A program made the translations under genes and the position numbers. Under the pieces are notes generated by a model. It saw only the letters and a program-made list of their open reading frames with translations. It did not search any database and was not told the origin of the DNA. A stretch of 64,000 bases of DNA from Desulfosporosinus sp. GTDB lineage: Bacteria > Bacillota > Desulfitobacteriia > Desulfitobacteriales > Desulfitobacteriaceae. Positions within the stretch are counted from its first letter, which is position 1. Each line of letters begins with the position of its first letter. Positions 16,737-40,293 of this stretch are shown in pieces. The stretch is from NCBI GenBank assembly GCA_020692355.1, contig JAIMKP010000012.1:5724-69723 (forward strand). Reading direction: 5' to 3'.

Positions 16737-16856
16737 TTCATCCAATCGTGAGACTCCCACTTCTACAAGTGGGAGTGGTACCTCGTACTTTGCTTCGGTG
16801 GGGGTAGACTCCCCCACCGAAGTCTCGATGTTCAACTTTAGTTGAACGAGTTCACT
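16737..16856 (-). repeat. copy A of the 120-nt three-hairpin intergenic element
   Basis: Identical to copy B over 120 nt. Lies between the adh stop and the ilvD start. Strand assigned because all copies are co-oriented with the flanking minus-strand genes. Confidence 0.9.
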
Positions 16857-17922
16857 CTGTTTTACGGATGGCCTCCGTGATCATGGCTGAACTGACAGAA
16901 TATGGCATGAACCTCATAAAAGATGTCGGCGAGAGGGCCAGTTGCGCCACGCGTTCCAACTCCTCATCCGTCAGTTTCCTATCTACTCCCAGTTCTGCCA
17001 AACTCGTCGGCAAACCAATGTTGCGATAAAAGGCCTTCAGGTGCTCAATTTCCTCAAGAGGCTGACCATCAATATGCATGAGCGCAAGAATGCCGTACGC
17101 AACTTTGATTCCATGCAACATGGCATGCGTTTCCTCAACCACCGTAAGTCCATCATGTACACCATGAGCCGCACAGGCTCGCGTAGTCTCCATCCCGAAT
17201 CCACCGACAGCCCCTGATGCTATGAAAATAGCGTCGGTGATTTGTTGCACCGCATAGGATGGATCTTTTTTCTCCATATCTTTCAACGCCTGCGAACTGT
17301 ACTGAACCAAGGTATCGAGACAGACCTTAGCCGCAGCTAAGCCCAGTTTTGTGGGCACATGATCTTCATGCCCTCTGGCACACACAATCCCTTCATACCA
17401 CTTGGCCAACGTATCCCCAATACCTGAGAGCATATAGTTGGCCGGAGAATCAGCAATGATCGCTGTATCCACCAAGGTCAACAGGGAATTTTGAGGATGG
17501 TTGATATAATCCACGAACACTCCTTGCGGGGTGTACATAACGGAAATGTGTGTTACGCAAGAACACGTCCCCGCCACGGTGGGAACAGCAACAAACGGCT
17601 TCTTCAAACGGGCAGCCACTGTTTTACTGGCATCAAGGGCCTTTCCTCCACCAACACCCATCACCAGATCAATTTCTTTTGGAGCCAGGCTTTGCAACCG
17701 TTCTACTTCTTCATAAGACGATTCACCTTGAAATGAAGCCACTTCGTACCCTAAGCCATGCTCTAGAAAGCTAGGGACCAGGAGAACGCTCGCCTTGCTC
17801 CAGGCGGTTCGGCCCCCGATAATAAACAGATTCTTTCCATATTTCTGCAGCCATTCGCCTGCCTGCCGTAGAACTCCTGACCCATGAATATAGGCATTTG
17901 CTGAAGCCATCGCTAAATGCAT
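16852..17922 (-). CDS. iron-containing alcohol dehydrogenase family protein (glycerol dehydrogenase-like)
   Basis: 356 aa with GVGGGKALDASK motif and conserved His cluster (HDGLT.. HGIKVAYG). Confidence 0.8.
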   Translation of the reverse strand: MHLAMASANAYIHGSGVLRQAGEWLQKYGKNLFIIGGRTAWSKASVLLVPSFLEHGLGYEVASFQGESSYEEVERLQSLAPKEIDLVMGVGGGKALDASKTVAARLKKPFVAVPTVAGTCSCVTHISVMYTPQGVFVDYINHPQNSLLTLVDTAIIADSPANYMLSGIGDTLAKWYEGIVCARGHEDHVPTKLGLAAAKVCLDTLVQYSSQALKDMEKKDPSYAVQQITDAIFIASGAVGGFGMETTRACAAHGVHDGLTVVEETHAMLHGIKVAYGILALMHIDGQPLEEIEHLKAFYRNIGLPTSLAELGVDRKLTDEELERVAQLALSPTSFMRFMPYSVSSAMITEAIRKTE

Positions 17923-17940
17923 AAATCCGCCCCCTATCTA

Positions 17941-18060
17941 TTCATCCAATCGTGAGACTCCCACTTCTACAAGTGGGAGTGGTACCTCGTACTTTGCTTC
18001 GGTGGGGGTAGACTCCCCCACCGAAGTCTCGATGTTCAACTTTAGTTGAACGAGTTCACT
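17941..18060 (-). repeat. copy B of the 120-nt three-hairpin intergenic element
   Basis: Identical to copy A. Lies between the MFS stop and the adh start. Confidence 0.9.
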
Positions 18061-18120
18061 AGAATCACTTGACTTCATAAGCTCTTCTAAGCGCTTTTAA
18101 GCTCTCCTTTAGCGTTATGC

Positions 18121-19428
18121 TTATGCGTTCTTACTGTTACCCCCTAAGTGAGAAACACTCACATGCTCTTTACGGATAGCCAGGACTAATAGGGTAGTAG
18201 CGATCAGTGAACCGCTGAGGAAATAGAGTCCTGATGTCATGGACCCGGTGGCCCCCTTTAGGGCACCCAACGCATAGGGGCCTACGAAACCACCCAGATT
18301 TCCAATGGAGTTAATGACGGCAATCCCCACAGCAGCCGCCTCTTCAGCCAGAAACATCGGTGGCAAGGACCAGAAGGAACCAAAAAAGCTATAAATTCCT
18401 GCCGTGGCTATTGAAAGCATGGCAACGGAAACGTAGGGATTGGTAGTCATTCCTGCTCCGATCAGAGCGGCAGCTCCGATTAGGGGTGGAATAGCAGTAT
18501 GATAACGACGCTCACCCGTTTTATCTGAATGACGAGCCACGAGAACCATGGAAATTCCCCCGACAACATAGGGAATCATCGTAATAAACCCAACCATCTG
18601 ATTGCTACCCGTCTTGGAAAAAGCTTTAACGATCTGTGGCAACCAGAAACCAATCCCGTAAAGTCCAACGACAAGCGTCAAATAGATAGCTGATAAATGC
18701 CAAACCCTAGGGTTAACAAACACCTGCAATTTGCTGAGTTGCTTTACTTGGGGTTTAGCTTTTTGCTCGCTCTCTAATTCTGCAATGAGCCAGTTTTTCT
18801 CTTCCGAACTCAACCAATGCGCCTTTTCCGGCCGATCGGTCATAAAGATCAGCGTAATAATCCCAAAAAGAATAGCCGGTGAACCCTCCAGAATGAACAG
18901 CCAGCGCCAACCGTGTAAGCCCAGGGCATTAAATCCCAAAATCCAGGTGGATATAGGAGCGCCGATGATGTTGGAAGCAGCCAAAGCCGTCATAAAAAAT
19001 GCAAAGGCTCTGGCTTGTTGTTTTGCTGGAAACCAATAGGTAATGTAAAGAATAATCCCTGGGAAAAAGCCTGCTTCGGCCACCCCCAACAGAAAACGCA
19101 GAATGTAGAGATGCGTTGCGTTCGAGACCCAAGCCGTGACGATGACAACAATCCCCCAGGAAATCATAATTCGGGCAATCCAAACTCTTGCTCCGATACG
19201 ATGCATAAGAATATTGCTGGGAACTTCAAAGATAAAATAACCGAGGAAAAAGATACCCGAGATAAGACCGAAAACCGCACTGCTGAGGCCAAGTTCCTTG
19301 TTCATCGTGAGCGCTGCATAACCCAGATTGACTCGATCCAAGAAGGCAATAATATAGAGCACGAAAATAAATGGAATGATGTGACGGCTGACTTTACGCA
19401 GAGTAAGTTGTCCCAGAGCAGAATCCAT
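18121..19428 (-). CDS. MFS transporter, anion:cation symporter (ACS)-like, probable organic-acid uptake
   Basis: 435-aa 12-TM ORF. The N-terminal FLDRVNLGYA motif is typical of the ACS subfamily (tartrate/galactonate-type). Confidence 0.8.
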   Translation of the reverse strand: MDSALGQLTLRKVSRHIIPFIFVLYIIAFLDRVNLGYAALTMNKELGLSSAVFGLISGIFFLGYFIFEVPSNILMHRIGARVWIARIMISWGIVVIVTAWVSNATHLYILRFLLGVAEAGFFPGIILYITYWFPAKQQARAFAFFMTALAASNIIGAPISTWILGFNALGLHGWRWLFILEGSPAILFGIITLIFMTDRPEKAHWLSSEEKNWLIAELESEQKAKPQVKQLSKLQVFVNPRVWHLSAIYLTLVVGLYGIGFWLPQIVKAFSKTGSNQMVGFITMIPYVVGGISMVLVARHSDKTGERRYHTAIPPLIGAAALIGAGMTTNPYVSVAMLSIATAGIYSFFGSFWSLPPMFLAEEAAAVGIAVINSIGNLGGFVGPYALGALKGATGSMTSGLYFLSGSLIATTLLVLAIRKEHVSVSHLGGNSKNA

Positions 19429-19456
19429 AAGTAATTCCTCCTTATTTTTTTTATAT

Positions 19457-19556
19457 TTACCCTGGCCGAGATTCGACTTTGATCACTTCTCGTTAAAACC
19501 CGCAGTCCGGTCAAAGACTCTTGCTCAATCCCCTTCCTCCCTTCTTGCTGCGGCAT
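19457..19556 (-). pseudogene. N-terminal remnant of a CaiB/BaiF family III CoA-transferase paralogue (internally deleted and frameshifted)
   Basis: The minus strand reads MPQQEGRKGIEQESLTGLRVL, then in another frame EVIKVESRPG*. The intact neighbour has PLAGLRVLE..(20 aa)..AEVIKIEPRQG. Confidence 0.6.
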
Positions 19557-19732
19557 TTTTTTATATAATACTCGCCAGTTCTCCGCTATTATGGTAGCAC
19601 ACAGCGAACTTTGGGAGCAAGCTTTTTTACATGGTTCGTCTTCATCGGCATTGCTCAAAACACGGATCCAGGTCGCACGGATGAACGATGTTGCTTGAAT
19701 CTCGCTGACTTCGACTTTTTCTGGTCACTGCA

Positions 19733-20923
19733 TCAGATCAGCTCCTCTTTCTGAAACGCCTCATACTGCTCGGAGCTAAGTCCCAACAGTTCTTTGTAGA
19801 TAACCTCGTTATCCGCGCCAATCCCCGGCCCTGCCCAACGAATCTGCCCAGGGGTATCACTCAGTATCGGTACAACCCCTGGCATCAGCATTTTGCCAAT
19901 CCGAGGATCGAAAAACTCCCGGATCATCCCGCGCGCTTGAAACTGAGGATCAGCTGCAATGTCGGCAATGCTGTAAACCGGTCCGCATGGCACACCTGCT
20001 TTTTCCAACTTTGCTAAAGTTTCTTGCGCATCCAGACCCCTTACCCACGCGCTGATGATCTCATCGAGCTCTTGGACATGGGCTACACGCGCTGGATTAT
20101 CCAGAAAACGCGGGTCGGTTGCAAGCTCCGACTTGCCCATCAACGCTGTGAAGCGCCGAAAAATCCCGTCCCCGTTCGCTCCAATGGCGATCCACTTATC
20201 ATCTTTGCTTAAGTACATGTTGGATGGTGCCGCCACTGAAAGGATATTCCCTGTCCGCTCCCGGATAACACCGTATTTCCCGTACTCGGGCAAAATCCCT
20301 TCCAGCAGGTTAAACACTGATTCCGTGAGGGCCACATCGACAACTTGCCCCTTGCCGGTCCTACCGCATCTTTTCAATGCGAGAAGTGTGCCAATCACGG
20401 CATGCAGAGCCGCAATTTCATCTCCTATTGCCAGCCCAACCCTTACCGGTGGACGATCCGGATATCCGGTAAGATAACGAATCCCGCCCATGGATTCCGC
20501 AATGTTGCCAAAACCCGGTCGCTCACGATAGGGTCCAGTTTGGCCATATCCGGAAATCCGCACCATGATAAGTTTTGGATTAACAGCCTTTAACTCCTCA
20601 TACCCGAGCCCCCATTCCTCCAGCTTTCCCGGGCGAAAATTTTCTATAACAACATCACAAGTTTGCACTAAGCGCTGTACTACCTCCTTCGCTTTGGGTT
20701 TTTTCAAATCCAAGGTAATACATCTCTTGTTACGCGCCTGGACCAGGGACCATAAGGACCCCGCTTCACTGGGAAGCCCCCAAGTACGTAACGGGTCTCC
20801 CTGCCGTGGTTCGATTTTAATGACTTCTGCACCAAAGTCAGCCATCATGCGAGCTGCTAGAGGGCCTGCGATCAACTGACCCATTTCTAAAACTCGCAGT
20901 CCGGCTAAAGGCCCCTTCTCCAT
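19733..20923 (-). CDS. CaiB/BaiF family III CoA-transferase
   Basis: 396 aa with GLRVLEMGQLIAGP N-terminus and conserved family III features. Confidence 0.9.
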   Translation of the reverse strand: MEKGPLAGLRVLEMGQLIAGPLAARMMADFGAEVIKIEPRQGDPLRTWGLPSEAGSLWSLVQARNKRCITLDLKKPKAKEVVQRLVQTCDVVIENFRPGKLEEWGLGYEELKAVNPKLIMVRISGYGQTGPYRERPGFGNIAESMGGIRYLTGYPDRPPVRVGLAIGDEIAALHAVIGTLLALKRCGRTGKGQVVDVALTESVFNLLEGILPEYGKYGVIRERTGNILSVAAPSNMYLSKDDKWIAIGANGDGIFRRFTALMGKSELATDPRFLDNPARVAHVQELDEIISAWVRGLDAQETLAKLEKAGVPCGPVYSIADIAADPQFQARGMIREFFDPRIGKMLMPGVVPILSDTPGQIRWAGPGIGADNEVIYKELLGLSSEQYEAFQKEELI

Positions 20924-20947
20924 TCCCTTCTACCTCCCCTGCTGAGA

Positions 20948-21811
20948 TCAAACTTTGTGCACAGCGTTTAATAGTAGCTTCTCCGCTTCTTCAAGCTTCT
21001 CCAGATTGATCCCGGTTTTTACCCCCATTTCCTCTAAAAACTCAACCAAAAGTTTAGTGGACAAATTGCCCGGAGCACCCGGCGCGTAGGGGCAACCTCC
21101 TAAACCGCCGATCGAAGCGTCAAAGGCGGTGGCTCCGCCTTCCAATGCTGCCAAAACATTCGCTAAACCGAACCCCCTCCGGTCATGAAAATGAGCAGAG
21201 AGCTTGAGGCCAGGATAAGCCAAAGCCAGACTCTGGAAAACCTCATAGACCTGCCGCGGCTGAGCTACCCCGATGGTATCAGCCAGGCCTATTTCTTCCA
21301 CTCCCATACGGACATACCATTCTGCCTGCCAGATGACCCGTTCCCTAGGAACTGCTATTTCAAACGGGCAACCAAACGCCGTGGCTATGTCACCCCGGAC
21401 ACGAATGCCATCCGCATGGGCACGTTCCACAATGGCCTCGAAATCCCGCATGGATTCTTCGGTCGTCCGGTTCAGATTCGCCTTGTTGTGGCTTTCGCTA
21501 GCCGATGCTACGAGATCGACAAAACGAATTCCAGCTTCCTTTGCTCTTTCATACCCACGCATATTGGGCACGAGCGCATTCCAAATCACCTTGGATACTG
21601 ACGGAAGCCTCAACGCCAAGGCATCGGCATCGCTCAAAGCCGGGATCCATTTCGGATGTACAAACGAGGTCGCTTGAATCGCGCTAAATCCCGCCTGGGA
21701 TAAACAAACGGCTACTGCCAGCTTCGTTTCCGTGCTGACAATGATCGGTTCATCCTGAAGCCCATCCCTGAGTCCAACTTCAATGACTTCTACTGTTTGT
21801 GGCCAATCCGT
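20948..21811 (-). CDS. hydroxymethylglutaryl-CoA lyase-like (HMGL/DRE-TIM) lyase; start codon unresolved
   Basis: The open frame extends 58 codons upstream of the first TTG (21637). That extension encodes the conserved N-terminus DWPQTVEVIEVGLRDGLQDE. It contains no in-frame ATG/GTG/TTG. The GAGGAGG SD at 21820-21826 lies 8 nt before an ACG codon. Confidence 0.65.
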   Translation of the reverse strand, partial: TDWPQTVEVIEVGLRDGLQDEPIIVSTETKLAVAVCLSQAGFSAIQATSFVHPKWIPALSDADALALRLPSVSKVIWNALVPNMRGYERAKEAGIRFVDLVASASESHNKANLNRTTEESMRDFEAIVERAHADGIRVRGDIATAFGCPFEIAVPRERVIWQAEWYVRMGVEEIGLADTIGVAQPRQVYEVFQSLALAYPGLKLSAHFHDRRGFGLANVLAALEGGATAFDASIGGLGGCPYAPGAPGNLSTKLLVEFLEEMGVKTGINLEKLEEAEKLLLNAVHKV

Positions 21812-21876
21812 TTAAATCGCCTCCTCGTCACCATTAAATTAAATGAATGCCAATTGTTTTTCTACTATTCTGATTA

Positions 21877-21892
21877 TGCAAAAAACATGCCA
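21877..21892 (-). promoter_or_regulatory. sigma-54 (-24/-12) promoter driving the HMGL-like/CoA-transferase operon
   Basis: The minus strand reads TGGCATGTTTTTTGCA, matching TGGCAC-N5-TTGCW with correct GG/GC spacing. It lies ~65 nt upstream of the operon SD and is divergent from a sigma-54 activator gene. Confidence 0.7.
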
Positions 21893-21944
21893 CTAAGAAA
21901 AAGGACGGTATACTTGACTTAATGCCTCCTAGATCTTATAATCC

Positions 21945-21972
21945 GTTTCATAATCTGTTTCACATCGTTTCA
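21945..21972. promoter_or_regulatory. three direct GTTTCA repeats (candidate enhancer/UAS for the PrpR-like activator)
   Basis: GTTTCA at 21945, 21957 and 21967, 50-80 nt upstream of the -24 element. Confidence 0.3.
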
Positions 21973-22044
21973 TGTTGTTCAACCTTGGTTATAGGATTTA
22001 TCGTTGGCAGATTGTTCACTAAACAATGAAAGGGGGTACGTGCT

Positions 22045-23904
22045 ATGTGTCCGACGATCGGTGTTTTCTGTTATCGGGAACTGGGATACCTCATTAAGGC
22101 ACTGCAGTATAATCTTCCCAGCTCCGTTAAATTGCTGATAAGAGACGGCGTTGTACTTGAGAAAGCCTTGAATATAGCCAGAAAATTAGAAGATAAGCAT
22201 GAAGTCGATGTCATTCTATCCTCGGGAGGGAATGCCAGACTTCTATCTCAGAATTTAAAAACACCTGTAGTCGACATTGCAATTACTGGCTTCGATGTCC
22301 TTTTTGCTTTAAAAAAAGCACAGGAATTCTCCACTACAGCGGCAATTGTTACTTACCAAAGTAAACTCCCCCACTTAGAAAAAGTCAAAGACCTGTTGAC
22401 CGTGCCTCCGAAGGAACTAATCTTTGCGCATCCAGAATCGATCGGGCCAATTCTGGATGCGTTGAAGAGCGAAGGCATTAACACAGTCATAGGTGGTAGT
22501 TTGGTCCTCGAAGCGGCTCGGCAGAAAGATATGCGTGGGATCTTTATCTATTCTATGGATGGCGTTGAGCGCGCCCTGGATATGGCCGTGCAAATTGCTT
22601 TTTCCAAACACTTAGAAACAGAGAAGGCAGAGCAGCTTCGGACTATTTTAGATTTTGCTTATGGAGGAATCATTGCTACCGATAAGTCGGGAACCGTTAC
22701 TGTTTTTAACCCAAGCGCAGAAAAAATTACCGGTATTTCCCGCCACACGATAATAGGGCAAAATATTGAACAATTTCTTCCGACCACCCGGCTAACGCAA
22801 GTGATGAAAACGGGTCAGTCAGAACTGAACAAACTACAGGCCATAGGGGAAGTCCATATTCTTACGAATCGAATCCCTATTATTGTCAAAAGCGATATAA
22901 CTGGAGCAGTTGCCACCTTTCAGGACATCGGTAGCATTCAGGAGGCTGAAGAGCAGATTCGCAAGAGATTATACGAAAAAGGGTTTTTAGCCAAGGCACA
23001 TTTGACGGATATTCTAGGCAACAGCGAGTCCTTGTTACAGGTTAAGAGACAAGCAGCACTCTATGCTCCGAACAGCTCGACGGTACTCATCCTGGGGGAG
23101 TCGGGTACGGGTAAGGAACTGTTTGCCCAAGCGATCCACAATGCCAGTTCACGTTCACCACGACCGTTTGTTGCGATAAACTGCGCAGCTCTGCCAGAGA
23201 ATCTTTTAGAGAGCGAATTGTTTGGCTACGCTGACGGCGCTTTCACCGGAGCCAAAAAAGGTGGCAAACCAGGGCTGTTCGAGTTGGCCCATGCAGGAAC
23301 AATTTTTTTGGATGAAATTGGGGAAATCTCCATGTCCATTCAGGCCAGACTCCTGAGAGTCCTGGAAGAACATGAAGTAATGCGCATTGGTGGCGACCGT
23401 ATCATTCCCGTCGACATTCGGGTTATAGCCGCAACAAATAAACATCTCTGGCAGATGGTAGAACATGGGGTCTTTAGGGAAGACCTCTATTATCGGTTGA
23501 ACATCCTGACCCTTGTGCTGCCATCGTTGAGGATGCGACGAACCGATATGGCCTTGCTCGTGCATAAATTCTTATCGGAACTAAGGCCAGACTTAACTGA
23601 CAACGAAATTAAGAGGATTTCTGAACAACCAGGTTTCCAGGACTATGATTGGCCCGGTAATGTCAGGGAACTGAAAAATTTCGTTGAGAGGTTTTCCGTA
23701 CTTTTGACTCCTGGAACGGATGCTCATTCTTTGTTCGAGTCACTGCTCGTCATGGTTCAGTCAGAGAGAATATTGAGTGACGATGATGAGGAGGAAATTG
23801 AGAATGTATTGCGAAGTGTTCAGGGCAATAAAACTGAAGCAGCCAAAAGGCTGGGCATTAGCCGTACGACTTTATGGAGACGGATGAGAGGGAAAACCCA
23901 CTAA
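22045..23904 (+). CDS. sigma-54-dependent transcriptional activator with PrpR-type N-terminal sensor, PAS, AAA+ and Fis-type HTH domains
   Basis: GESGTGKE Walker A, GAFTGA loop (DGAFTGA) and C-terminal HTH ([16 protein letters not shown]). GAAAGGGGG SD lies 8 nt upstream. Confidence 0.9.
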
Positions 23905-23923
23905 GGGAATTATACATCAAAAC

Positions 23924-23957
23924 AAAAGAGGCTGTTGACTTGTCAACAGCCTCTTTT
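23924..23957. terminator. bidirectional intrinsic terminator between convergent regulator and lactate permease genes
   Basis: Perfect 16-bp stem AAAAGAGGCTGTTGAC / GTCAACAGCCTCTTTT with a 2-nt loop, flanked by A/T runs. Confidence 0.75.
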
Positions 23958-23995
23958 GATCCATTAAGATGACACTTTATAAAACCGACTTAGCT

Positions 23996-31313: not shown

Positions 31314-31340
31314 CAGAAAAAGACACCAAAAGGGTGTCTG
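31314..31340 (-). terminator. intrinsic terminator-like hairpin inside the leader, ~45 nt upstream of the hutP-like start
   Basis: The minus strand reads AGACACC-CTTTT-GGTGTCT followed by TTTTTCTGG. Confidence 0.45.
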
Positions 31341-31546: not shown

Positions 31547-31575
31547 ATTATAGTATGTCCGGGCTGACTTTGCAA
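31547..31575 (-). promoter_or_regulatory. sigma-A-type promoter of the hutP-like/aro operon
   Basis: The minus strand reads TTGCAA-17 nt-TATAAT, immediately after the stop of the upstream gene. Confidence 0.55.
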
Positions 31576-31617
31576 CCGCAAACCGTGTTTTTCAGTCCTC
31601 GCAAAATCACTCAAAGG

Positions 31618-32049
31618 TTAGGGGCTCACCTTGACGTTCTGGGTATTCCCGTTCAGGCTCAGCACACTCGAATGCGGTTCCTTTAGATTTGCATCCCTGG
31701 GCAGGATTTGTACCCGTATGCTTTGCCCAATCCCCCGCCCATCGAGGAGAATTTCCCCTGCGCGAACCTTGATAAGCTTTTCCCCTTGACTCAAATCCGC
31801 GAGCTGCACACCGTTTTGCCAAACCTTTACCGGTGCATTGGGAACAGCCTTGAGCGAAAGGGTATACGTTTGACTCGCTTCGCTTCCCGTAGCAGGAATG
31901 TCAAGCGGCGGGTTTTCCACTTTGGCCGCCATCGCTAAGTAAAAATCTACCGGATCCTTCGCCAACCCCAGCTGCACGATCGCTAGGGCTACAGACGCTA
32001 AAATCATCATGCGGATGAGAATTTGTTCTGTCCGGCGCACATGCATCAC
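31618..32049 (-). CDS. hypothetical secreted/membrane-anchored protein
   Basis: 143-aa ORF with an N-terminal hydrophobic segment. No family recognised. Confidence 0.4.
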   Translation of the reverse strand: MMHVRRTEQILIRMMILASVALAIVQLGLAKDPVDFYLAMAAKVENPPLDIPATGSEASQTYTLSLKAVPNAPVKVWQNGVQLADLSQGEKLIKVRAGEILLDGRGIGQSIRVQILPRDANLKEPHSSVLSLNGNTQNVKVSP

Positions 32050-32081
32050 CTCGTAGAAAACTTATGCGCCAAAATGCATCC

Positions 32082-33341
32082 TCAGACCCTCGATTCTAAG
32101 TAGCGGCTAGCAGCCCGACCCGCCCGATAGCCCATGGCAAAGGCGGCCTGCAAATTATACCCTCCTGTCACCCCGTCGACATCCACCACTTCCCCCGCAA
32201 AATAAAGCCCTTCAACCTTCTTGGAAGCCAGGGTTTTGGGATCAATCTCCTTGACATCGACTCCTCCCGCAGTGACGATCGCCGCAGCCAGGGGAAGCGT
32301 TCCCAAAATGGTTAAAGGGAGGCCCCGCAAAAGACCAGCGAGCCGTCGCCGTTCTTCCTTGCTCACCTGATGCACCGCCTTATCCGGGTCAATCCCAGAA
32401 AGCTCGATGATCACAGGAATGAGAGACTTTGGCAAAAGGTCATTGAGCGCATTTTTGAACTGTTTATTGCTGAATTCCTTAAAATCCCGCTGCAGGCGAA
32501 GATCAAGCTGTTCAGGCGTGAGGGCGGGCTTCAGATTAATGTTCAGAGTCACCTTTTCGCCTCGGTTTACGGCTAACCCAGCATCCCGGCTCAAGGTTAA
32601 GATAATCGGGCCAGATACTCCGAAGTGCGTAAACAACATCTCCCCAAATTCCGTCTTCCCTCTTTTCCCGTTCAGGAATAGGCTCGCTTCCACATTGCGC
32701 AGGGAAAGCCCTTGAACATCTTTGACCCAGCCTTCCTCTGTACGCAGGGGGACGAGAGCCGGTCGTGGTGAAATAACGCAATGTCCCAAGGCCTCGGCCA
32801 AGCGGTAGCCGTCCCCAGTGGATCCTGTCCCCGGATAGGATGCCCCTCCTGTTGTGACAATGCAGGCCTGGGCCGGATACATCCGACCACCCCGGAGCCG
32901 GACGCCGGTAACTTTTCCTGCCGTCATTACAATCCCGTCAACCACCTCTTTTAACCTCACCTCGACGTGTTCCTGGTTTAGGAACCGTTCTAAGGCCTGT
33001 ACCACCGCTTCGGCATCATCTGATACGGGAAAAACACGCCCACCCCGCTCCACCTTGGTCTCGACACCATAGGCGCTGAGAAATTCGCGCAAACGCACAT
33101 TATCGAACTCTCGCAAGATCCCTTGCAGGAAGCGGCCATTGCCAGGATAGTTCCGGATAAAATCCGAGACGTGTTCTGCATTGGTAATGTTGCAGCGTCC
33201 TTTCCCGGAAATCGCGATCTTTCGTCCTAACCGCTCGTTTTTCTCGAGGAGCACAACCTCTGCCCCGGCCAGTGCTGCTTGCCCTGCGGCCATCATCCCC
33301 GCCGCTCCCCCGCCTATCACGATGAGCCGCTTATCGTTCAT
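32082..33341 (-). CDS. NAD(P)/FAD-dependent oxidoreductase, HI0933/YhiN family
   Basis: Start at MNDKRLIVIGGGAAGMMAAG (ATG 33341, AAGGGGGG SD). C-terminal GVTGGYNLQ motif is typical of the family. Confidence 0.8.
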   Translation of the reverse strand: MNDKRLIVIGGGAAGMMAAGQAALAGAEVVLLEKNERLGRKIAISGKGRCNITNAEHVSDFIRNYPGNGRFLQGILREFDNVRLREFLSAYGVETKVERGGRVFPVSDDAEAVVQALERFLNQEHVEVRLKEVVDGIVMTAGKVTGVRLRGGRMYPAQACIVTTGGASYPGTGSTGDGYRLAEALGHCVISPRPALVPLRTEEGWVKDVQGLSLRNVEASLFLNGKRGKTEFGEMLFTHFGVSGPIILTLSRDAGLAVNRGEKVTLNINLKPALTPEQLDLRLQRDFKEFSNKQFKNALNDLLPKSLIPVIIELSGIDPDKAVHQVSKEERRRLAGLLRGLPLTILGTLPLAAAIVTAGGVDVKEIDPKTLASKKVEGLYFAGEVVDVDGVTGGYNLQAAFAMGYRAGRAASRYLESRV

Positions 33342-33373
33342 GAAGAAGCCCCCCTTGCCTAGCCCAGCAACTC

Positions 33374-34402
33374 CTAGAGCAGAATGTCGTGCCGATCTGG
33401 ATCTCGGGTCGCACATGCCATACATAAGGGCGGTTCCGAGTGGTCGAAAATCTGCTTGCCACAACAGCTGCAAAAACGGGGATCGCCCTCATGCAAGAGA
33501 ATTTTCCCCTTGAGCACGCCCGCAGGAAGCGATTTCGCCTCCAGGGCCAAGGCTTTCGGCTGGCAGATTTCCACACAACGCCCACACTGTACACATTGGA
33601 GCGGTTCGAGGACAAGCTGCAAGGCCTGTCCTTTTTGGCGTTTCGTCAACGCTCCTTGCGGGCAGATCGCCGCACAGACTCCGCAGTTCGTACACGCATC
33701 AGACACCGTGAGCGCCAGAAAAGGAACTTCTAATCCTGCAACACTTTCCAGTGCTTCTGCGAGCCACATACGCGTCAGCGGAATGTTATTGCTTTGCTCG
33801 GCGGCCAAACTGGGAAGGAAACCTTCGACTTTTTTGCGCCCCAGTTCGCGCCAATTGTGCAAACCGCGCTCCTTGACCGTTTCTGGATTCTTCGGTAAAT
33901 CACGGCTCTCCGCCCCACCCTGATCCGGCTTCACCCGAATTTGGATTTCCGGGTGTTCCGGCCACTGGGCATGAATTTCTTTAAATACGGACACAGACAT
34001 CAGGCAAGCCTCTTTGTCCGGGCAATCGGCACAGCGGGCCGTCAGAAGCCTTATCTTTTTCCGGGAAGCTAACGCTAAGAGCGCCAGCCATAAATCCCGA
34101 TCCACAATGCCCAAGCAGGGAATTTCCCAGCCCTCCGGCTCTGCTGCCGGGCAATTCAAGATGATCTCCTCTGCCTGAAACAGATAGTCATGCAAGCCTT
34201 CTAGCGAGCGATCCACAACCCCGTCACTGGGGCAGACCGCCATACAGACCCCACACTCGCTGCAGCGCTCCAAATCGATTTCATGCGTCTCGGAAATCGC
34301 TTGGTGCGGGCATTTTTCCACACATTCACGGCAGGCCCGCGCAAAGGGCTTTTTTGTATTTATACAGTTATGCGGATGAAAAAGCATTTGTCCATAGGGC
34401 AT
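33374..34402 (-). CDS. 4Fe-4S dicluster domain-containing protein
   Basis: Several CxxCxxCxxxCP motifs (CSECGVCMAVCP, CTNCGVCAAICP, CVQCGRCVEIC). Confidence 0.7.
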   Translation of the reverse strand: MPYGQMLFHPHNCINTKKPFARACRECVEKCPHQAISETHEIDLERCSECGVCMAVCPSDGVVDRSLEGLHDYLFQAEEIILNCPAAEPEGWEIPCLGIVDRDLWLALLALASRKKIRLLTARCADCPDKEACLMSVSVFKEIHAQWPEHPEIQIRVKPDQGGAESRDLPKNPETVKERGLHNWRELGRKKVEGFLPSLAAEQSNNIPLTRMWLAEALESVAGLEVPFLALTVSDACTNCGVCAAICPQGALTKRQKGQALQLVLEPLQCVQCGRCVEICQPKALALEAKSLPAGVLKGKILLHEGDPRFCSCCGKQIFDHSEPPLCMACATRDPDRHDILL

Positions 34403-34458
34403 ATCATCGCATCCTTAACAGTGTTTGCCTCCAAAAAACAAGAGAAACAACGAAACTA

Positions 34459-34578
34459 TTCACCCTATCGTGAGACTCCCACTTCTACAAGTGGGAGTGG
34501 TACCTCGTACTTTGCTTCGGTGGGGGTAGACTCCCCCACCGAAGTCTCGATGTTCAACTTTAGTTGAACGAGTTCACT
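34459..34578 (-). repeat. copy C of the 120-nt three-hairpin intergenic element
   Basis: Differs from A/B only in the last ~10 nt (ttcaccctatcg vs ttcatccaatcg on the plus strand). Lies between the GntR stop and the 4Fe-4S gene start. Confidence 0.9.
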
Positions 34579-34589
34579 TAAGCGTGCAC

Positions 34590-35294
34590 CTAGAGCACGC
34601 GTAACGTATCCTCTTCCACACGCACGAGATGGCAAAGCATGCATTCACTGGCCTTTTCTGGATCGCGCGCTCTAATCGCATCCAGTATCGCCACATGCTC
34701 GACATAGAGGCGTTCCAGAATCTCTTTGGAGCTAAAGAGCTTGCTGCGGCTTATCTTTAAGGTCTGCTGCATGGTGTCTGAAATGGAATTCATAATCCGA
34801 ATCAAGATCGCATTGTGTGTAGCCCGGGTGATGGCAAAGTGAAAGCGGTGGTCGGCCACTTCCCCGATCTGGCCCGTTTCCAGATCCTGGCGCATCATTT
34901 CCAAGGCGTCGGCCATCTCTTTGAGCTCTGCTTCCCCGGCCCGCTCAGCCGCCAGGCTGACCGCCTGGGATTCCAGGATCTTGCGCACCTCCATGAGCTG
35001 AACAACTGTGTCCTTCTCCAAAGAAAGAACCCAAGCGATCGGGGCGACTACGGAGTCAATGTTCACATGCCGGATATACGTTCCTTCACCCGAACGAACC
35101 TCTACCAGCCCCATCATTTCCAAAGCACTTAGGGCCTCGCGAACCGAGGCACGGCTCACTTGCAAGCGTTCCGCGAGTTCACGTTCTGCGGGTAGGCGAT
35201 CCCCAGGCTTAAGCTTACCCGAGGAAACCAACTTGCGTAGTTGTTCTGCGATTTCTTCATATATTTTTCGCGTCTTGATCGGTTTCAGCTCCAA
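34590..35294 (-). CDS. GntR/FadR-family transcriptional regulator (LldR/PdhR-like)
   Basis: N-terminal winged HTH (LPAERELAERLQVSRASVREAL) and an FCD-type C-terminal domain. Confidence 0.85.
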   Translation of the reverse strand: MELKPIKTRKIYEEIAEQLRKLVSSGKLKPGDRLPAERELAERLQVSRASVREALSALEMMGLVEVRSGEGTYIRHVNIDSVVAPIAWVLSLEKDTVVQLMEVRKILESQAVSLAAERAGEAELKEMADALEMMRQDLETGQIGEVADHRFHFAITRATHNAILIRIMNSISDTMQQTLKISRSKLFSSKEILERLYVEHVAILDAIRARDPEKASECMLCHLVRVEEDTLRVL

Positions 35295-35442
35295 GACTGT
35301 CCCTCCCCTTCCCTGGCCTGCTGTCCAGGCCTCTTGGTTAGTCTACACATGTAGTGTATCACGGAGCATCCGCAAAATGCTAGTAGATTCTACAGTTTTC
35401 AGTAAAATATCGCAAAATATTTCACAAACTTAATGCGTAGTT

Positions 35443-36741
35443 TTAGACGCGAGGTTCGAGTTTGCCAGCCCGATACGACTCCGCCAGGATCTGGACGATA
35501 TGCACCACATCCTCCTGCAAGTCGGCATTTTCCACCCCGCTCGCCAACTGCAGACGACAAGCCGGGCAGCCCGTGGCTACGGTATCGGTATGGGTCTGGG
35601 CAATATCTTGAATCTTGCGTTCCAAAATCTGATCCGAGAGTTCGGGATGGGTGAGGCTAAACGATCCTGCCATACCGCAGCAACGCCCTGGCTCCTTCAT
35701 CTCAATGAGTTCCAGCCCCGGAATCTTTTTAAGCATCTCCCGCGGTTCGGCGTAAATCCCTTGTCCCCGGTTTAAATGACACGGGTCATGATAAGTGACT
35801 TTACGTTCCACGCGACCGAGCCCTTCTTCTTTAAATGGGACGCGATCGACCAGGAATTCAGCGATATCATAGGACTTCTCCGCCCATTTTTCCGCCAAAG
35901 CCCGCCACTTCGGCTCATCACTCAAAAGTTCGGCATAGACATGCTTCCAGGCCGAACCTCCCGAGGAACAGGCCACCACCAAGGCGTCTGCTCCCATGTT
36001 CTCAAACTCGCGCAAATTGCGTTTCGCCATGACTCTTGCTGATTCTACATCTCCATTCACAGAAGCCGGGATCCCGCAGCACCCTTGTCCGTTCGGGATA
36101 ACCACTTCGAGGCTGTTCTCGATCAGTACCTCAACCACAGCCTTTCCCATGTCGGTATAGAAATAATTGATCATACAGCCGGTAAAGAAAGCTACCCGCA
36201 TCTTCGCTGTTCCAGCCGGGCGGACGATCTCCGGCAGTTCGCTGCGCAAGGTTCTCTTCGCCAAATTAGGGAAAACCTTTGTTTGCCCCATACCCACTTC
36301 AAAGCGTAAACGGGAACCTGACTTGCGGCCAGGAATCCGCTTCAGCGCGACTCCTTGAAAAACACTCCCGACCTTCAAACCCAAATCAAAGAGGCCTTGC
36401 CGTTTCAAAGCTCCGAAAGCGATCGCTTTCGCAGAGTGTAATCCTTTTTGGCGTACCGCCTCCGCACGGGCCGCTAGAATAATCCGATCAAAACGCACCC
36501 CACACGGGCAGTTGGCATTGCATGCCATGCATGTCGTGCACAAAGAGAACCGCTCAGAAAGACCTTCCGTCATTTCCGTTTCTCCGGACAGGAGGGCCTC
36601 CACAAGGCTAATCTTTCCGCGAGCCACCCCAACTTCATGCCGGGTTTCCTTGTAGATTGGACAGACTGCCTGGCAGTTGCCGCATTTCATGCACTTGTGC
36701 AGTTCGCCTTCAATCGATGTCAATGTGCTGTAAATCCCCAC
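35443..36741 (-). CDS. (Fe-S)-binding oxidoreductase subunit, GlcF-like with two CCG domains
   Basis: Two ferredoxin CxxCxxCxxxCP motifs at the N-terminus, plus CCG repeats (GCCGIP, RCCGMAG). Confidence 0.8.
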   Translation of the reverse strand: MGIYSTLTSIEGELHKCMKCGNCQAVCPIYKETRHEVGVARGKISLVEALLSGETEMTEGLSERFSLCTTCMACNANCPCGVRFDRIILAARAEAVRQKGLHSAKAIAFGALKRQGLFDLGLKVGSVFQGVALKRIPGRKSGSRLRFEVGMGQTKVFPNLAKRTLRSELPEIVRPAGTAKMRVAFFTGCMINYFYTDMGKAVVEVLIENSLEVVIPNGQGCCGIPASVNGDVESARVMAKRNLREFENMGADALVVACSSGGSAWKHVYAELLSDEPKWRALAEKWAEKSYDIAEFLVDRVPFKEEGLGRVERKVTYHDPCHLNRGQGIYAEPREMLKKIPGLELIEMKEPGRCCGMAGSFSLTHPELSDQILERKIQDIAQTHTDTVATGCPACRLQLASGVENADLQEDVVHIVQILAESYRAGKLEPRV

Positions 36742-36773
36742 ACCTATTTCCTCCTCTGGAGCATCTTTCGGGC

Positions 36774-38165
36774 CTATTCCTTTCTTAGCACGATCTTCCC
36801 AGGGTTAAGCCGATATTCCGGATCGAGTGCTTCTTTAATACGCCTCAAGGTACGCACACCGGCCTCCCCGAACTCTAAGGGCAAATACTTGGCTTTGGCT
36901 ATGCCAATACCATGCTCCCCAGAAAGCGTACCTCCCAGAGAAATAGCAACTTGGAAAATCTCATCAACTGCTTTCTCTACGCGCGCCATTTCCTCTTTGT
37001 CCCGCTCATCCGTCAAGATCGTGGGATGCAGGTTGCCATCCCCGGCATGACCGAATGTGCCGATGAGAAGATCATACTTTTTCGCAATCTCGCGGATCGC
37101 TTTTAACATCTCAGGGATCTTACTGCGGGGAACCGTTGCATCTTCCAAAACCGTGGTTGGTTTCTTTTGCGCCAAGGCCGGTAAGGCGCTGCGGCGGGCG
37201 AACCAAATCCGCTCCCGCTCCTGCTCATCTTTAGCCACTTTGACTTCAACGGCTCCTTCTTGCTGCAGAACATCCTCCACCAGCGCGGCTTCCCGTTCTA
37301 CAACCTCCTTATACCCATCGACTTCAATCAAGAGGACAGCCTCTGCCTCTATGGGCAGGCCCGCATGCGTGAAGTTTTCCACCGTACGCAGCGTCATATT
37401 GTCCATGATTTCCAGAGTCGCCGGGATGATCCTGTTGCGAATAATGGCGGATATCGCCCGCCCTGCTTTGTCTACATCATCGAACACCCCTAAGAGGCTT
37501 TTTCTCGTTTCTGGAGCAGGAATCAACTTGACGAGAATTTCTGTGATAATCCCTAGTGTCCCCTCCGCCCCCGTAAAGAGGGCGGTAAGGTCATATCCGG
37601 TAACATTTTTTACCGTCTTTCCGCCCCATTTGATCACTTTCCCATCGGCGAGCACGAGCTTCATTCCCATCACATAGTGTTTTGTTACCCCGTATTTCAG
37701 TCCACGCAAGCCCCCTGAAGACTCAGAAACTGAGCCGCCCATGGTCGCCGTCGTCACCGTCCCAGGATCGGGGGGATAGAGAAGCCCGTGCAGAGCGACT
37801 TCATTATTCAGGTCCTGGATGATCACCCCAGGCTGAACAGTCGCTGTCAGGTTCTCCGTATCCACTTCCAGAATTCGGTTCATGTTCAAGAGAGACAGGA
37901 CAATCCCTCCCTCCAGCGGAATCGTCCCCCCGCTGAGATTCGTCCCCGAACCCCGTGGGTAAACCGGAAGCCCGTATTTCTGAGCGATGTTCAACACCTG
38001 ACTCACTTCTTCCGTCGATTTCGGAGCCACAACCACATCCGGCGTTTTCCGCCTCATCGCGGCGGTCGCATCATAGGCATAGGTTAACAAATCTTCAGTC
38101 TCGCTGAGTACATTTTTACCTCCCAGCACCTCTCTAAGTTCCCTAAGAATCGATTCTGATAACAT
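36774..38165 (-). CDS. FAD-linked oxidase, GlcD / D-lactate dehydrogenase-like
   Basis: 463 aa with an FAD-binding PCMH domain (YPRGSGTNLSGG) and a C-terminal GEHGIG motif. Confidence 0.85.
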   Translation of the reverse strand: MLSESILRELREVLGGKNVLSETEDLLTYAYDATAAMRRKTPDVVVAPKSTEEVSQVLNIAQKYGLPVYPRGSGTNLSGGTIPLEGGIVLSLLNMNRILEVDTENLTATVQPGVIIQDLNNEVALHGLLYPPDPGTVTTATMGGSVSESSGGLRGLKYGVTKHYVMGMKLVLADGKVIKWGGKTVKNVTGYDLTALFTGAEGTLGIITEILVKLIPAPETRKSLLGVFDDVDKAGRAISAIIRNRIIPATLEIMDNMTLRTVENFTHAGLPIEAEAVLLIEVDGYKEVVEREAALVEDVLQQEGAVEVKVAKDEQERERIWFARRSALPALAQKKPTTVLEDATVPRSKIPEMLKAIREIAKKYDLLIGTFGHAGDGNLHPTILTDERDKEEMARVEKAVDEIFQVAISLGGTLSGEHGIGIAKAKYLPLEFGEAGVRTLRRIKEALDPEYRLNPGKIVLRKE

Positions 38166-38242
38166 CCCATGTCCCCCTTATCTAAAACTTTCTAAAAACA
38201 TCACTATCAAAAACCACTTTTACAAGCTCTTACCGCAAACTG

Positions 38243-38707
38243 TTAGCGCAGGAACTTCTGCTCCAATTCGCCGAGGGCCTGCTGATGGGCCTGGCTCATG
38301 CGAAAGAGCAGTCGCTCCAGATCCAAGCGGTGTAGATGCACTTGATCAGGACTTAAAAACTCGATCTTGCGAAACTCCTGTCTTAAGATCAAAGGCAAAA
38401 GGTCATCCATGTTTTCCAAGCGAAGCTTCAAAACGACTGGGGCATAGGCAACATCGGCGGCCTTCCTACCTTGGGTTTCACGAACTTCATAAATATCGAG
38501 GCTTAAATCCACATCCTCAATCGTGATTCCCTGCAGCGGAAAATTGCGCAGCAAGGCGACCTGCTGTTCCCGAAACGCTTCCGCCATGTCTTCCTTTCTC
38601 TTACTGCCGAAGAAAAAGCGCCCGTTTTTCGGCTCGCCGCGAAAATCGAGCCGGATCTGCACTCGGATATGTTCTGCCAAAATCTCATCCCCAATGCGAA
38701 TTTTCAT
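38243..38707 (-). CDS. hypothetical protein
   Basis: 154-aa ORF with plausible codon usage. No family recognised. Confidence 0.4.
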   Translation of the reverse strand: MKIRIGDEILAEHIRVQIRLDFRGEPKNGRFFFGSKRKEDMAEAFREQQVALLRNFPLQGITIEDVDLSLDIYEVRETQGRKAADVAYAPVVLKLRLENMDDLLPLILRQEFRKIEFLSPDQVHLHRLDLERLLFRMSQAHQQALGELEQKFLR

Positions 38708-38832
38708 CCCTCAACCCCCGCTCTCAAACTTAAATTTTATAATTCGCCCTTTCCTGCCTTTTTCCTTCTTCCTCTGCGTGAACGATGTCGTTTGAGGACA
38801 TACTAGCCCAAACGGCACAAGGAGGATTGAAG

Positions 38833-39345
38833 ATGCTAAGAACAGTTGTGGCAGTTTTTAAAAGCCCTGTCCAAACCAAAGAAGCCGTGGAGGAGATTCA
38901 AGGGGAATCCTTGGCGAATAGCAAAATATCTGTTCTGGTACGCCATGAATATGTACGCCAGCGTAATGTCAACGAGGAAATCGCCAGTGAATTGGCCTAT
39001 TACCCTGTGGAAAAAAACCTTGATGCCTTTAATGCCTGGCTGGTTCAGGCACCTCCGCTTAATATCCCCGATTTGGGCGATGTACTCGCGGCAGGCCCGC
39101 TCGCTAATGTCTTGATGCGCCTGCCAAAAGGGGCTGGACTGGCCGATGCCCTACTCGGCTATGGGCTCACGGGGGAACGCTCCCGCCATTATGAACATGA
39201 GGTCCGGACAGGGCAGTACCTCGTTCTCATCCAGACAGAACATGAAAAAGTTAATTCTGTGGCCAATACCCTCCAGTGTTATGGAGGCAAAGACATTGAA
39301 AAGTGGAACAAGGAGTTAGATCATCCCCTATACCCTTTCCATTAA
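38833..39345 (+). CDS. general-stress-protein-like (YflT/GSP17M-like) protein
   Basis: Start at MLRTVVAVFKS, preceded by AAGGAGG. Family resemblance is from memory only. Confidence 0.45.
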   Translation: MLRTVVAVFKSPVQTKEAVEEIQGESLANSKISVLVRHEYVRQRNVNEEIASELAYYPVEKNLDAFNAWLVQAPPLNIPDLGDVLAAGPLANVLMRLPKGAGLADALLGYGLTGERSRHYEHEVRTGQYLVLIQTEHEKVNSVANTLQCYGGKDIEKWNKELDHPLYPFH

Positions 39346-39370
39346 TCCCTAACTCAAGGCTGATCAAAGT

Positions 39371-39402
39371 AGCCCCCATACCTAACACGGGTTATGGGGG
39401 CT
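39371..39402. terminator. bidirectional hairpin between convergent genes
   Basis: 10-bp stem AGCCCCCATA / TATGGGGGCT with a 12-nt loop. Confidence 0.55.
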
Positions 39403-39413
39403 TTGGCTATGGG

Positions 39414-40160
39414 CTAAGCCTTATCATCATGCCCGGCCAGCCCAACAAGCTGACGTAGAGCCTTGATTTCGGCTTTCGTCAATAGACGGAAGGCTCCCGC
39501 TTTCAAATCCCCCTCAAGGACCAGTGGCCCGTAACGTATCCTCTCCAGCCGCAGCACCGGATGGCCAATGGCGGCAAACATACGACGCACCTGGCGGTTC
39601 TTCCCTTCATGAATCGTGATCTCCAAGAGAAAGGGGGTAGGACGGATCACGCGCACTTTGGCCGGAGCCGTTTTCCCGTCCTCAAGTTCAATCCCGTGTG
39701 CTAATATTTTCAAGCGGGCAGGTGGAATCGCATGTTCCACCCACACCCGGTAGGTCTTATCCACGCCATAGCGCGGGTGAGCTAGGCGATGGGCCAGTTC
39801 CCCATCATTCGTGAGCAGCAGAAGGCCCGAGGTATCATAATCCAGCCGTCCCACCGGGTATACCCGGACTGGCAAAGCCCCGAGAAGCTGGAGCACGGTG
39901 GTGCGCCCTTGGGGATCCTGAGCGGTAGTCATCACCCCGCAGGGCTTATTTAAGAGATAATAATGCCATGCCTGACGGCCTTGAATCATGCGGCCCTCAA
40001 CCCTAATCTCATCCGTCGGCCCGACTTTCACGCCGAGCGCTTCGACCTTGATCCCGTTCACATAAACCTTGCCCTCGCGAATGAGTTCCTCTGCCCGCCG
40101 CCGAGAGGCCACGCCAGCCTGGGCTAGCACCTTCTGCAAACGGGTTCCCTCTGTTTCCAC
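39414..40160 (-). CDS. rluB: 23S rRNA pseudouridine synthase, RsuA/RluB family with S4 domain
   Basis: RLQKVLAQAGVASRR S4 motif and GRLDYDTSGLL catalytic motif. Start set to GTG 40160, 6 nt after AAGGGGG. The longest ORF runs into repeat copy D. Confidence 0.85.
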   Translation of the reverse strand: METEGTRLQKVLAQAGVASRRRAEELIREGKVYVNGIKVEALGVKVGPTDEIRVEGRMIQGRQAWHYYLLNKPCGVMTTAQDPQGRTTVLQLLGALPVRVYPVGRLDYDTSGLLLLTNDGELAHRLAHPRYGVDKTYRVWVEHAIPPARLKILAHGIELEDGKTAPAKVRVIRPTPFLLEITIHEGKNRQVRRMFAAIGHPVLRLERIRYGPLVLEGDLKAGAFRLLTKAEIKALRQLVGLAGHDDKA

Positions 40161-40172
40161 CGAAGACCCCCT

Positions 40173-40293
40173 TTTATCTAATCGTAAGACTCCCACTTCT
40201 ACAAGTGGGAGTGGGTCCCCCATACTCTGCTTCGGTGGGGGTAGACTCCCCCACCGAAGTCTCGATGTTCAGCTTGAGCTGAACGAGTTCACT
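40173..40293 (-). repeat. copy D (divergent) of the three-hairpin intergenic element
   Basis: All three hairpins are retained and the linker has diverged. The stem base pair A-T is replaced by G-C in the GTTCA(A/G)C hairpin. Confidence 0.85.

Follow-up and report, generated by a model that had tools for sequence, protein, structure and literature searches.

What is the sequence of about 120 nucleotides that recurs four times between genes in a 64,000-nucleotide stretch of Desulfosporosinus sp. (contig JAIMKP010000012.1 of assembly GCA_020692355.1, positions 5,724 to 69,723; hereafter the window)? The initial annotation of this DNA had suggested a REP/BOX-like module acting at the RNA level on mRNA stability, processing or translation, or else a structured MITE (a miniature transposable element of the inverted-repeat type). 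Our analysis indicates that the four copies are, with good probability, small, non-coding and non-autonomous mobile repeats, organized as a modular "hairpin mosaic" in the sense of BOX, REP and MITE repeats. The family to which they belong is widespread among anaerobic spore-forming Firmicutes and has, it appears, not been described before; its members are short mobile DNA repeats that form hairpins and tend to insert at stop codons or directly behind them.

We located the copies in the window by three approaches. The 30-nt core of the central hairpin (hairpin 2) has exactly four exact matches, all on the minus strand (16793-16822, 17997-18026, 34515-34544 and 40230-40259), where none is expected by chance. 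A repeat finder returned a single four-copy family (16734-16856, 17938-18060, 34456-34578 and 40171-40293), and a covariance model built from relatives recovered full-length minus-strand copies at 16737-16856 (c1, 120 nt), 17941-18060 (c2, 120 nt), 34459-34578 (c3, 120 nt) and 40173-40293 (c4, 121 nt), with no further copy in the window. All three agree with the four co-oriented minus-strand copies described initially. When the flanks of the four copies were aligned, the likeness began abruptly at AGTGAAC and stopped at GAT-NAA, the sequences beyond being unrelated. Copies c1 to c3 are ~98-100% identical to one another. Copy c4 shows 90.9% identity to c2 and carries, in its first hairpin, the compensatory A-T to G-C double change that had already been noticed; it may represent an older or a different subfamily.

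Each copy folds into three hairpins of 7, 12 and 10 bp, as first described and as recovered here by both RNA and DNA folding. In c1 these are, on the minus strand, hairpin 1 at 16830-16847 (GTTCAAC-TAAA-GTTGAAC, 7 bp), hairpin 2 at 16793-16822 (CTTCGGTGGGGG-AGTCTA-CCCCCACCGAAG, 12 bp) and hairpin 3 at 16753-16776 (ACTCCCACTT-GTAG-AAGTGGGAGT, 10 bp). The three differ in stem sequence, hairpins 2 and 3 sharing only the motifs GTGGG(A/G)GTCT and CCCAC. The RNA of the sense strand folds at -57.3 kcal/mol (z = -5.6) and that of the complementary strand at -58.7 kcal/mol (z = -7.0); folded as single-stranded DNA, the two strands reach z = -7.0 (sense) and z = -7.9 (complementary). RNAalifold applied to 63 genome copies recovered the three hairpins alone. 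Two further helices proposed by single-sequence folding, a GUGA/UCAC closing helix and a ATCGAGAC/GTCTC..GAT helix, were discarded, as they are kept neither across subfamilies nor by RNAalifold.

We also asked whether the pairing itself is conserved. The initial annotation had seen covariation at a single pair; many more pairs covary. Among the genome copies in the RNAalifold sample, hairpin 1 has a position that is A-U in 36 copies and G-C in 26, and in hairpin 3 of the genome copies U-A (49) alternates with A-U (12), C-G occurring as well among the changes within the family. In an independent metagenome sample, anchored on the 5' end of the element only, double changes were found in 15 of the 24 pairs, including 7 of the 11 of hairpin 2. 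In this sample 96.7% of the cells were paired, compared with 34-54% when the partners were slid, and none of 500 shuffles reached the observed values. As compensatory changes occur in all three hairpins, we infer that the hairpins are kept through such changes and that the fold is needed for propagation. A strand-specific signature of the RNA type is absent: within the stems, G-T mismatches (24) are about as numerous as A-C mismatches (29), and therefore there is no sign that the sense RNA is the selected molecule, which may be the sense RNA, the DNA or the other strand.

The family extends far beyond the window. Scans of public genomes and metagenomes gave more than 200 copies in total: a 22-mer of hairpin 2, searched exactly, matched more than 92 stretches in species-representative genomes, and the metagenome scan added at least 120 stretches, both counts of stretches being lower bounds. 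When the covariance model was applied to 654 kb of the genome loci, 118 matches resulted. The genome matches come from several Desulfosporosinus species, Acididesulfobacillus acetoxydans, a Thermincola metagenome-assembled genome (MAG), Desulfotomaculaceae, Peptococcaceae CEB3 and Bacillota MAGs, and these hosts span at least 3 or 4 NCBI families. Copies in other genera are 82-97.5% identical to c2, and some of them are nearer to c2 than c4 is, despite c4 lying in the same window. Moreover, copies within one genome share diagnostic variants and so define genome-specific subfamilies, which fits an element that would amplify inside genomes. In the best explanation of these sequence comparisons, the element would also have spread among several families of anaerobic Bacillota. 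Neither IMG/VR nor PLSDB contained a match, and carriage by a phage or a plasmid was thus not found in them. No description of the element was found in the literature searched by organism, repeat type and sequence. As to known RNA families, no match reached the Rfam gathering threshold in the whole window or in 82 kb of loci with long forms of the element, in line with the first impression that it belongs to no known family; at relaxed thresholds, short and long forms gave chance-level matches only.

The ends of the element are sharply defined. The element opens with A (88/91) followed by G (88/91) at its 5' end, while copies with distinct flanks have random sequence before them. The 3' end consists of GAT, a variable base, A (76/90) and A (74/90), again followed by random sequence in distinct flanks. 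The variable base is partly genome specific (the end reads CAA in one MAG and AAA in another) and is free in one young subfamily; because it differs between and within subfamilies, the 3' boundary is uncertain by three bases. No terminal inverted repeats (TIRs) were found, the 5' AGTGAACTCGTT compared by eye with the reverse complement of the 3' tail giving at most 6 matches in 10. Nor was there a target-site duplication (TSD) of fixed length: repeats anchored on the boundaries are distributed as in shuffled flanks, except in three copies with direct repeats abutting the boundaries (10 nt in L031, 8 nt in L016 and 7 nt in L045, such labels denoting the loci retrieved around the copies), and most copies have none. 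The absence of clear TIRs and of consistent duplications had been part of the initial description and holds across the family. Because there are neither TIRs nor a fixed TSD, a classical DDE-type MITE is excluded.

Between these ends the element is modular. The unit typically measures 114-122 nt, and 85 to ~420 nt overall. A constant 5' module (AGTGAACTCG followed by hairpin 1) and a constant 3' module (hairpin 3 and a 16-nt tail ending in GAT-NAA) enclose a variable middle, which is hairpin 2 or is replaced or extended by nested hairpin modules. Long forms of ~130, 186, 230, 300-320 and up to ~420 nt (L064:2140-2459, L006:3924-4150 and L028:1188-1445, and numerous loci in metagenomes, among them L144, L195, L207 and L150) have the same termini as the short form. 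An example of a long-form module is CGATAGTCTCC-NNNN-GGAGACTATCG, and a long form of 320 nt folds at -150 kcal/mol; the long forms showed neither coding capacity nor an Rfam match. One long-form module (GCGCCTTCGGCGATAGTCTCCACTGGAGACTATCG) was found alone, right after a rluD-like gene (L008:3270-3310), and long-form modules may therefore be independent repeats that nest in one another. In addition, an extra 30-nt hairpin (CGCGTTTTTACGAAGTAAAATACGC) stands between hairpins 1 and 2 in six loci from fermentation metagenomes (L115, L119, L159, L168, L188 and L218). A 20-mer near-identical to this variant occurs upstream of tnpA in a copy of the insertion sequence (IS) IS605 (L233:225-250).

We also compared strains. 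Copies c1 and c2 are both missing from two assemblies (L095 and L096: GCA_030017905.1 and a Logan assembly) that encode an identical iron-dependent alcohol dehydrogenase (Fe-ADH) and differ by ~0.23% over 7 kb; all strains recovered carry c3 and c4. At c1 the empty site reads CAGAGTGAA|GTTTGAAGG, and the filled site has 114 additional bases with TGAA at both junctions; there is no duplication beyond 4 ambiguous bases, the terminal identity being 4-6 nt. At c2 the empty site reads TCTATTAAAATGAATAGA and the filled one TCT[AGTGAAC...GGATGAA]TAGA, a net gain of 109 in which 5-8 target bases were replaced. Four base differences and an indel are clustered within ~30 nt at this junction (window 17900-18000 against L095:2960-3000), unlike the c1 junctions, which have no clustered differences nearby. 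Other loci add to this variety. A filled locus (L040) compared with an empty one (L086) shows a 17-nt filler resembling the upstream flank. The element in L162 stands in place of AACGAA or GATAAA of L089/L207, with 2-3 target bases replaced. A further comparison, of L230 with the window near 58730, was too diverged for the junction to be read. The readable 3' junctions (c1, c2, L162 and L121) have 3-5 nt common to element and target. An orthologous copy in D. lacus and D. nitroreducens (L002 and L073) has diverged, with loss of pairing in hairpin 1. The presence/absence polymorphism and the distribution of copies, both read from sequence, suggest that the element is mobile, gained or lost between near-identical strains. 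With multiple copies, polymorphism and no coding capacity, the REP/BOX-like or structured-MITE-like repeat proposed initially is borne out in its broad sense.

Where does the element insert? The target hexamers at five readable sites are AGTGAA (c1), AATGAA (c2), AACGAA and GATAAA (the L162 site) and AATAAA (the tnpB gene adjoining one copy). All five fit RRYRAA, which is the form of the termini of the element itself (AGTGAA and GAT-RAA). We infer a preference for RRYRAA-like hexamers from these five sites only, three of them compared across 10-20% divergence. A second feature is the overlap with stop codons: the element and the stop of a co-oriented upstream open reading frame (ORF) overlap in 39 of 243 copies (16%), compared with 1.0% for random non-coding placement. 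The commonest overlap is a TGA inside AGTGA, as in c1, where the Fe-ADH gene upstream takes its TGA stop from the 5' AGTGA or shares it with this sequence; the others are T|AG, TG|A and TA|A, and few copies have the end at the TAA of frame 2. RRYRAA-like sites are common at stop codons (T-GA-A and T-AA-A), and therefore many copies would lie on an upstream stop.

Orientation relative to genes was less uniform than the window suggested. All genes flanking the four copies are on the minus strand, as the copies are, so that the co-orientation first reported stands within the window, but it does not hold in general. In the genome sample, 67 copies are co-oriented with the upstream gene and 24 are opposite (57 and 28 for the downstream gene), whereas in the independent metagenome sample the upstream gene is co-oriented in 62 cases and opposite in 58. 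The initial annotation had named copies in both orientations and inside genes, with TSDs, as the mark of an ordinary MITE; both orientations and positions inside genes were found in part, the TSDs were not. GC skew is positive on the strand of the element in 52 of 85 loci; it follows the orientation of the genes and not that of the element, and so gives no support for a strict replication-strand bias of the element.

We next consider the gene content around the copies, within 8-14 kb of each copy (~1.5 Mb in total, with genes called by longest-ORF heuristics). When all ORFs of these loci were clustered, no recurrent neighbouring protein family was found, the sole large cluster being the element's own frame. 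A conserved peptide was rejected: the window copies have an open frame 1, yet among 74 relatives only 29 do. Because frame 1 is open in window-type copies, spurious ORFs of 46 and 59 codons are predicted through the element (window 17938-18078, minus strand; L093:2845-2985; L100:3151-3330). A cargo-bearing parent was likewise rejected, 5' ends without a nearby 3' end being truncations or diverged tails, and no gene was found inside any longer copy. One copy (L067, 6034-6153) sits in frame inside an aldehyde dehydrogenase gene (5949-7521), where it follows a short N-terminal peptide, precedes the catalytic domain and contributes ~40 residues (SELVQPKLNIETSVGESTPTEAEYGVPLPLVEVGVSRLDQ).

A tnpB gene that adjoins a copy belongs to a family of IS605 elements with a Y1 tnpA. 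From five independent insertions the ends of this IS family were read as TTTAA|CCTCGTG... and ...GAGTATGTCAC|, the right end stopping at GTCAC. In L124 (2142-3028) the IS is inserted within a repeat; in L121 (1-1182) a repeat abuts tnpB at codons N-K|T-F-G; and in L233 (150-300) 85 nt upstream of tnpA look like the 5' portion of a repeat variant (z = 6.5). These 85 nt are missing from the closest relative, L253, and therefore have the look of a nested fragment and not of a parental end. The IS605 copies examined were rejected as parents, their ends being unlike those of the repeat and the three loci being cases of nesting or adjacency. The remaining likeness, AAC(C)TCGT at the left end and a GTGGGAGT..TCAC hairpin at the right end, is not significant for the window copies. 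No tnpA, Y1 or RAYT gene was found within the ~1.5 Mb of repeat-bearing loci.

How does the element compare with known repeats? It works like the BOX, REP/BIME, RPE and MITE repeats, and the defining features of none of them were found in it. BOX of Streptococcus pneumoniae (boxA-boxB(n)-boxC) is a short, non-coding, mostly intergenic and modular repeat with stable stem-loops, often co-transcribed, the end modules of which pair with each other; we know of no mobilising enzyme for it. The present element is similar in its constant end modules, variable internal modules, multiple copies, intergenic position, stable stem-loops and frequent co-transcription with adjacent genes. It differs in that every module is a hairpin of its own, no sequence relationship was seen, the hosts are anaerobes of the Clostridia class from several families, and the stop-codon preference is marked. 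The REPs are described (PMC3733652) as single palindromes of 20-40 nt whose stem bears GTAG or CGTC as a tag at its 5' foot. REP/BIME repeats and ours are alike as extragenic palindromes without TIRs or TSDs, mosaic and modular, in which structure is kept above sequence. In contrast to REPs, ours comprise 114-122 nt and three different hairpins, GTAG occurring only as the loop of hairpin 3 and not as a 5' tag, and no RAYT was seen in the loci examined around them. With the IS200/IS605 derivatives of the PATE type they share the lack of TIRs and TSD, the subterminal hairpins, a 5' boundary marked by a short conserved motif, one empty site of the peel-and-paste kind (c1) and a co-resident IS605, whereas most empty sites appear to lack the left motif, the end hairpins differ from each other, GC skew gives no sign of a replication-strand bias and the IS605 copies found have different ends.

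Correia/NEMIS, RUP, ERIC and bcr1, the classical MITEs, are bounded by terminal inverted repeats and duplicate a fixed target such as TA or TTTAT. Our element resembles them in size class, copy number, intergenic site, co-transcription and subfamilies that differ between genomes, but has neither the inverted repeats nor the fixed duplication. The Rickettsia palindromic elements (RPE) are also hairpin repeats able to sit in frame in genes, as the L067 copy does; here, in contrast, most copies are intergenic and the open frame is kept in the minority given above. Integron attC sites follow the consensus RYYYAAC/GTTRRRY and fold into one long, imperfect hairpin whose base holds the R''/R' core sites, and they stand in arrays beside an integrase. 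GTTCAAC and GTTGAAC fit this consensus, yet the hairpin that they make has 7 bp and a loop of 4 nt, and the copies lie 1-16 kb apart among housekeeping genes, and so attC was rejected. An IS91-like GAAC target was ruled out by the c1 empty site and by the architecture of the element.

By considering these results together, we favour the following course of events, as a proposal. The folded single strand would most likely be recognised by an enzyme supplied in trans, the hairpins being kept for propagation. Insertion would proceed without TIRs or a fixed TSD, favouring hexamers that are rich in purines, RRYRAA-like and similar to the termini of the element itself, and after insertion on an upstream stop the 5' AGTGA would re-create a stop codon. 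Copies inside operons would be co-transcribed passengers, any effect of the hairpins on the mRNA being secondary and putative. The copies thus look like genomic passengers and not like a dedicated regulatory RNA.

Several points weigh against this reading. In the genome sample 74% of the copies share the orientation of the upstream gene, which may leave room for some selection on the transcribed strand. The alignment used for covariation was fitted to the structure of the model, and the copies are related to one another and are not independent events. The absence of c1 and c2 may reflect loss by deletion instead of gain by insertion. Because the junctions are heterogeneous, the target rule is provisional. 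Conservation of up to 97.5% across families could reflect a function at the level of the host, and neither an autonomous parent nor a mobilising enzyme was found in the loci examined.

Which specific mechanism could mobilise the element? A possible, if doubtful, answer is that it derives from IS200/IS605 in the manner of PATEs, or from a REP/RAYT system, with a Y1 HUH transposase that binds the subterminal hairpins on single-stranded DNA, cuts after (AG)TGAA of the left flank and after T-N-AA of the right end, and pastes the unit 3' of the same motif without duplication. The lack of TIRs and of a regular TSD is as expected for such a derivative, as are subterminal hairpins under compensatory change in a DNA that folds equally well on either strand. 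The clearest of the empty sites, that of c1, has AGTGAA|flank, just what a peel-and-paste step would leave, and TGAA recurs at the element's own 3' end; IS605 with Y1 tnpA and tnpB is co-resident and interleaved with the repeat (L121 and L124). Some likeness of ends also exists: TTTAA|CCTCGT in the IS and GTGAA|CTCGT in the repeat on the left, and GTGGGAGTATGTCAC and GTGGGAGTCTCAC, respectively, in the hairpin and tail on the right. However, the other empty sites read AATGAA, AACGAA/GATAAA and AATAAA where the filled ones read AGTGAA, and the left motif is therefore not simply retained target, although three of these comparisons involve diverged sequences or a left junction that is not seen. 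Moreover, there is no resemblance between the left hairpin and the right one, only 3 nt separate hairpin 1 from the left boundary, and the GC skew shows no strict replication-strand bias. The IS605 copies have another target-adjacent motif (TTTAA), other left ends and a right end at GTCAC; L233, the sole IS with a repeat-like upstream region, is aberrant compared with L253 and is better read as carrying a nested fragment; and tnpA was missing from the repeat-bearing loci. The heterogeneity of the junctions would also fit an exact-ended unit captured at chromosomal nicks or breaks by microhomology, with variable small deletions or duplications, either SINE-like, with an RNA copy undergoing target-primed reverse transcription, or by the joining of a linear DNA at its ends. 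The different net gains and replaced bases at c1 and c2, the changes clustered near c2, the target bases replaced at L162, the L040 filler, the duplications of 10, 8 and 7 nt at a few boundaries and none at most, the 3-5 nt shared with the target at four 3' junctions and the A-rich 3' end all point this way. Yet we consider capture unlikely: only five sites are informative, three of them across 10-20% divergence, neither a reverse transcriptase nor a nuclease was found as partner, 5'-truncated copies are not in clear excess, and the prior is low because we know of no SINE-like element of this kind in bacteria. A new kind of mobile element, defined by its hairpins and exact ends, without TIR, fixed TSD or retained flank motif, the RRYRAA-like termini of which would pair with stop-codon hexamers via an RNA intermediate or microhomology capture and which would move horizontally among families of anaerobic Firmicutes, seems rather unlikely.

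The alternative that the element is a dedicated cis-acting structured RNA (one that blocks exonucleases, marks a processing site or couples translation), with its spread as a secondary matter, draws on the very stable three-hairpin fold with its compensatory changes, on the frequent position between close co-oriented genes, right after the stop codon and upstream of the next ribosome-binding site, on the same excess of co-orientation in the genome sample and on the strong conservation across families. This is improbable in our view, as orientation is balanced in the independent sample (62 and 58), G-T and A-C mismatches are equally common (24 and 29), folding is as good for the complementary strand as for the sense strand, the neighbouring genes are unrelated and none of their families recurs, c1 and c2 do not occur in strains whose genes are identical, orthologous copies decay, Rfam gave no match even for the long forms, and no promoter-like or terminator-like site was found within the element. 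On several of these grounds an RNA-level module, as the element's reason to exist, finds no support. We therefore commit ourselves to the general mechanism only, that of a putative trans-mobilised, hairpin-dependent, non-autonomous element with a preference for RRYRAA-like sites and stop codons, and place the Y1 route first among the specific mechanisms.

The surroundings of the four window copies complete the description. The window sequence is contained in contig JAEMOE010000039.1 of the MAG GCA_017973935.1. Copy c1 lies between the Fe-ADH gene and ilvD, with its 3' end 22 nt upstream of ilvD. The Fe-ADH gene, which is glycerol-dehydrogenase-like (16852-17922, minus strand), has c2 upstream and c1 downstream, its stop codon falling within c1; ilvD, for dihydroxy-acid dehydratase (15064-16734, minus strand), is downstream of c1. 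Copy c2 lies between an MFS transporter gene and the Fe-ADH gene. Copy c3 begins 11 nt past the stop codon of a GntR-family gene, upstream of a 4Fe-4S protein gene, and c4 separates a Gate-domain gene from a rluB-like pseudouridine synthase gene. Two other features of the window were observed. A 74-nt direct repeat of 84% identity (14961-15034 and 19733-19806) has one copy in the 3' end of a CoA-transferase gene (19733-20923, minus strand) and the other in the ilvD-dctP spacer, where it resembles the remnant of a gene end. An ORF of 46 codons (44133-44273, minus strand; MEGSIFSGMRPTGSLHIGHL...) between a peptidase-M50-like gene and scpA has a HIGH signature of the class-I aminoacyl-tRNA-synthetase type joined to a short tail, and therefore is probably a gene remnant.

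In conclusion, these results add an uncatalogued and abundant repeat family to the genomes of sulfate-reducing and related anaerobic Firmicutes. The repeat visibly fragments short-read assemblies, contigs ending inside it, as in several public assemblies of this species (contig ends L101, L102, L103, L104 and L106) that break inside c2 and c3. As it separates strains ~99.8% identical from inside central-metabolism operons, it is of use as a strain marker and relevant to annotation. The combination of ends free of TIRs and duplications, a strong stop-codon preference and modular hairpins under compensatory change is unusual, and makes the family a tractable case for how small repeats without TIRs, such as BOX, REP, RPE and similar ones, move.

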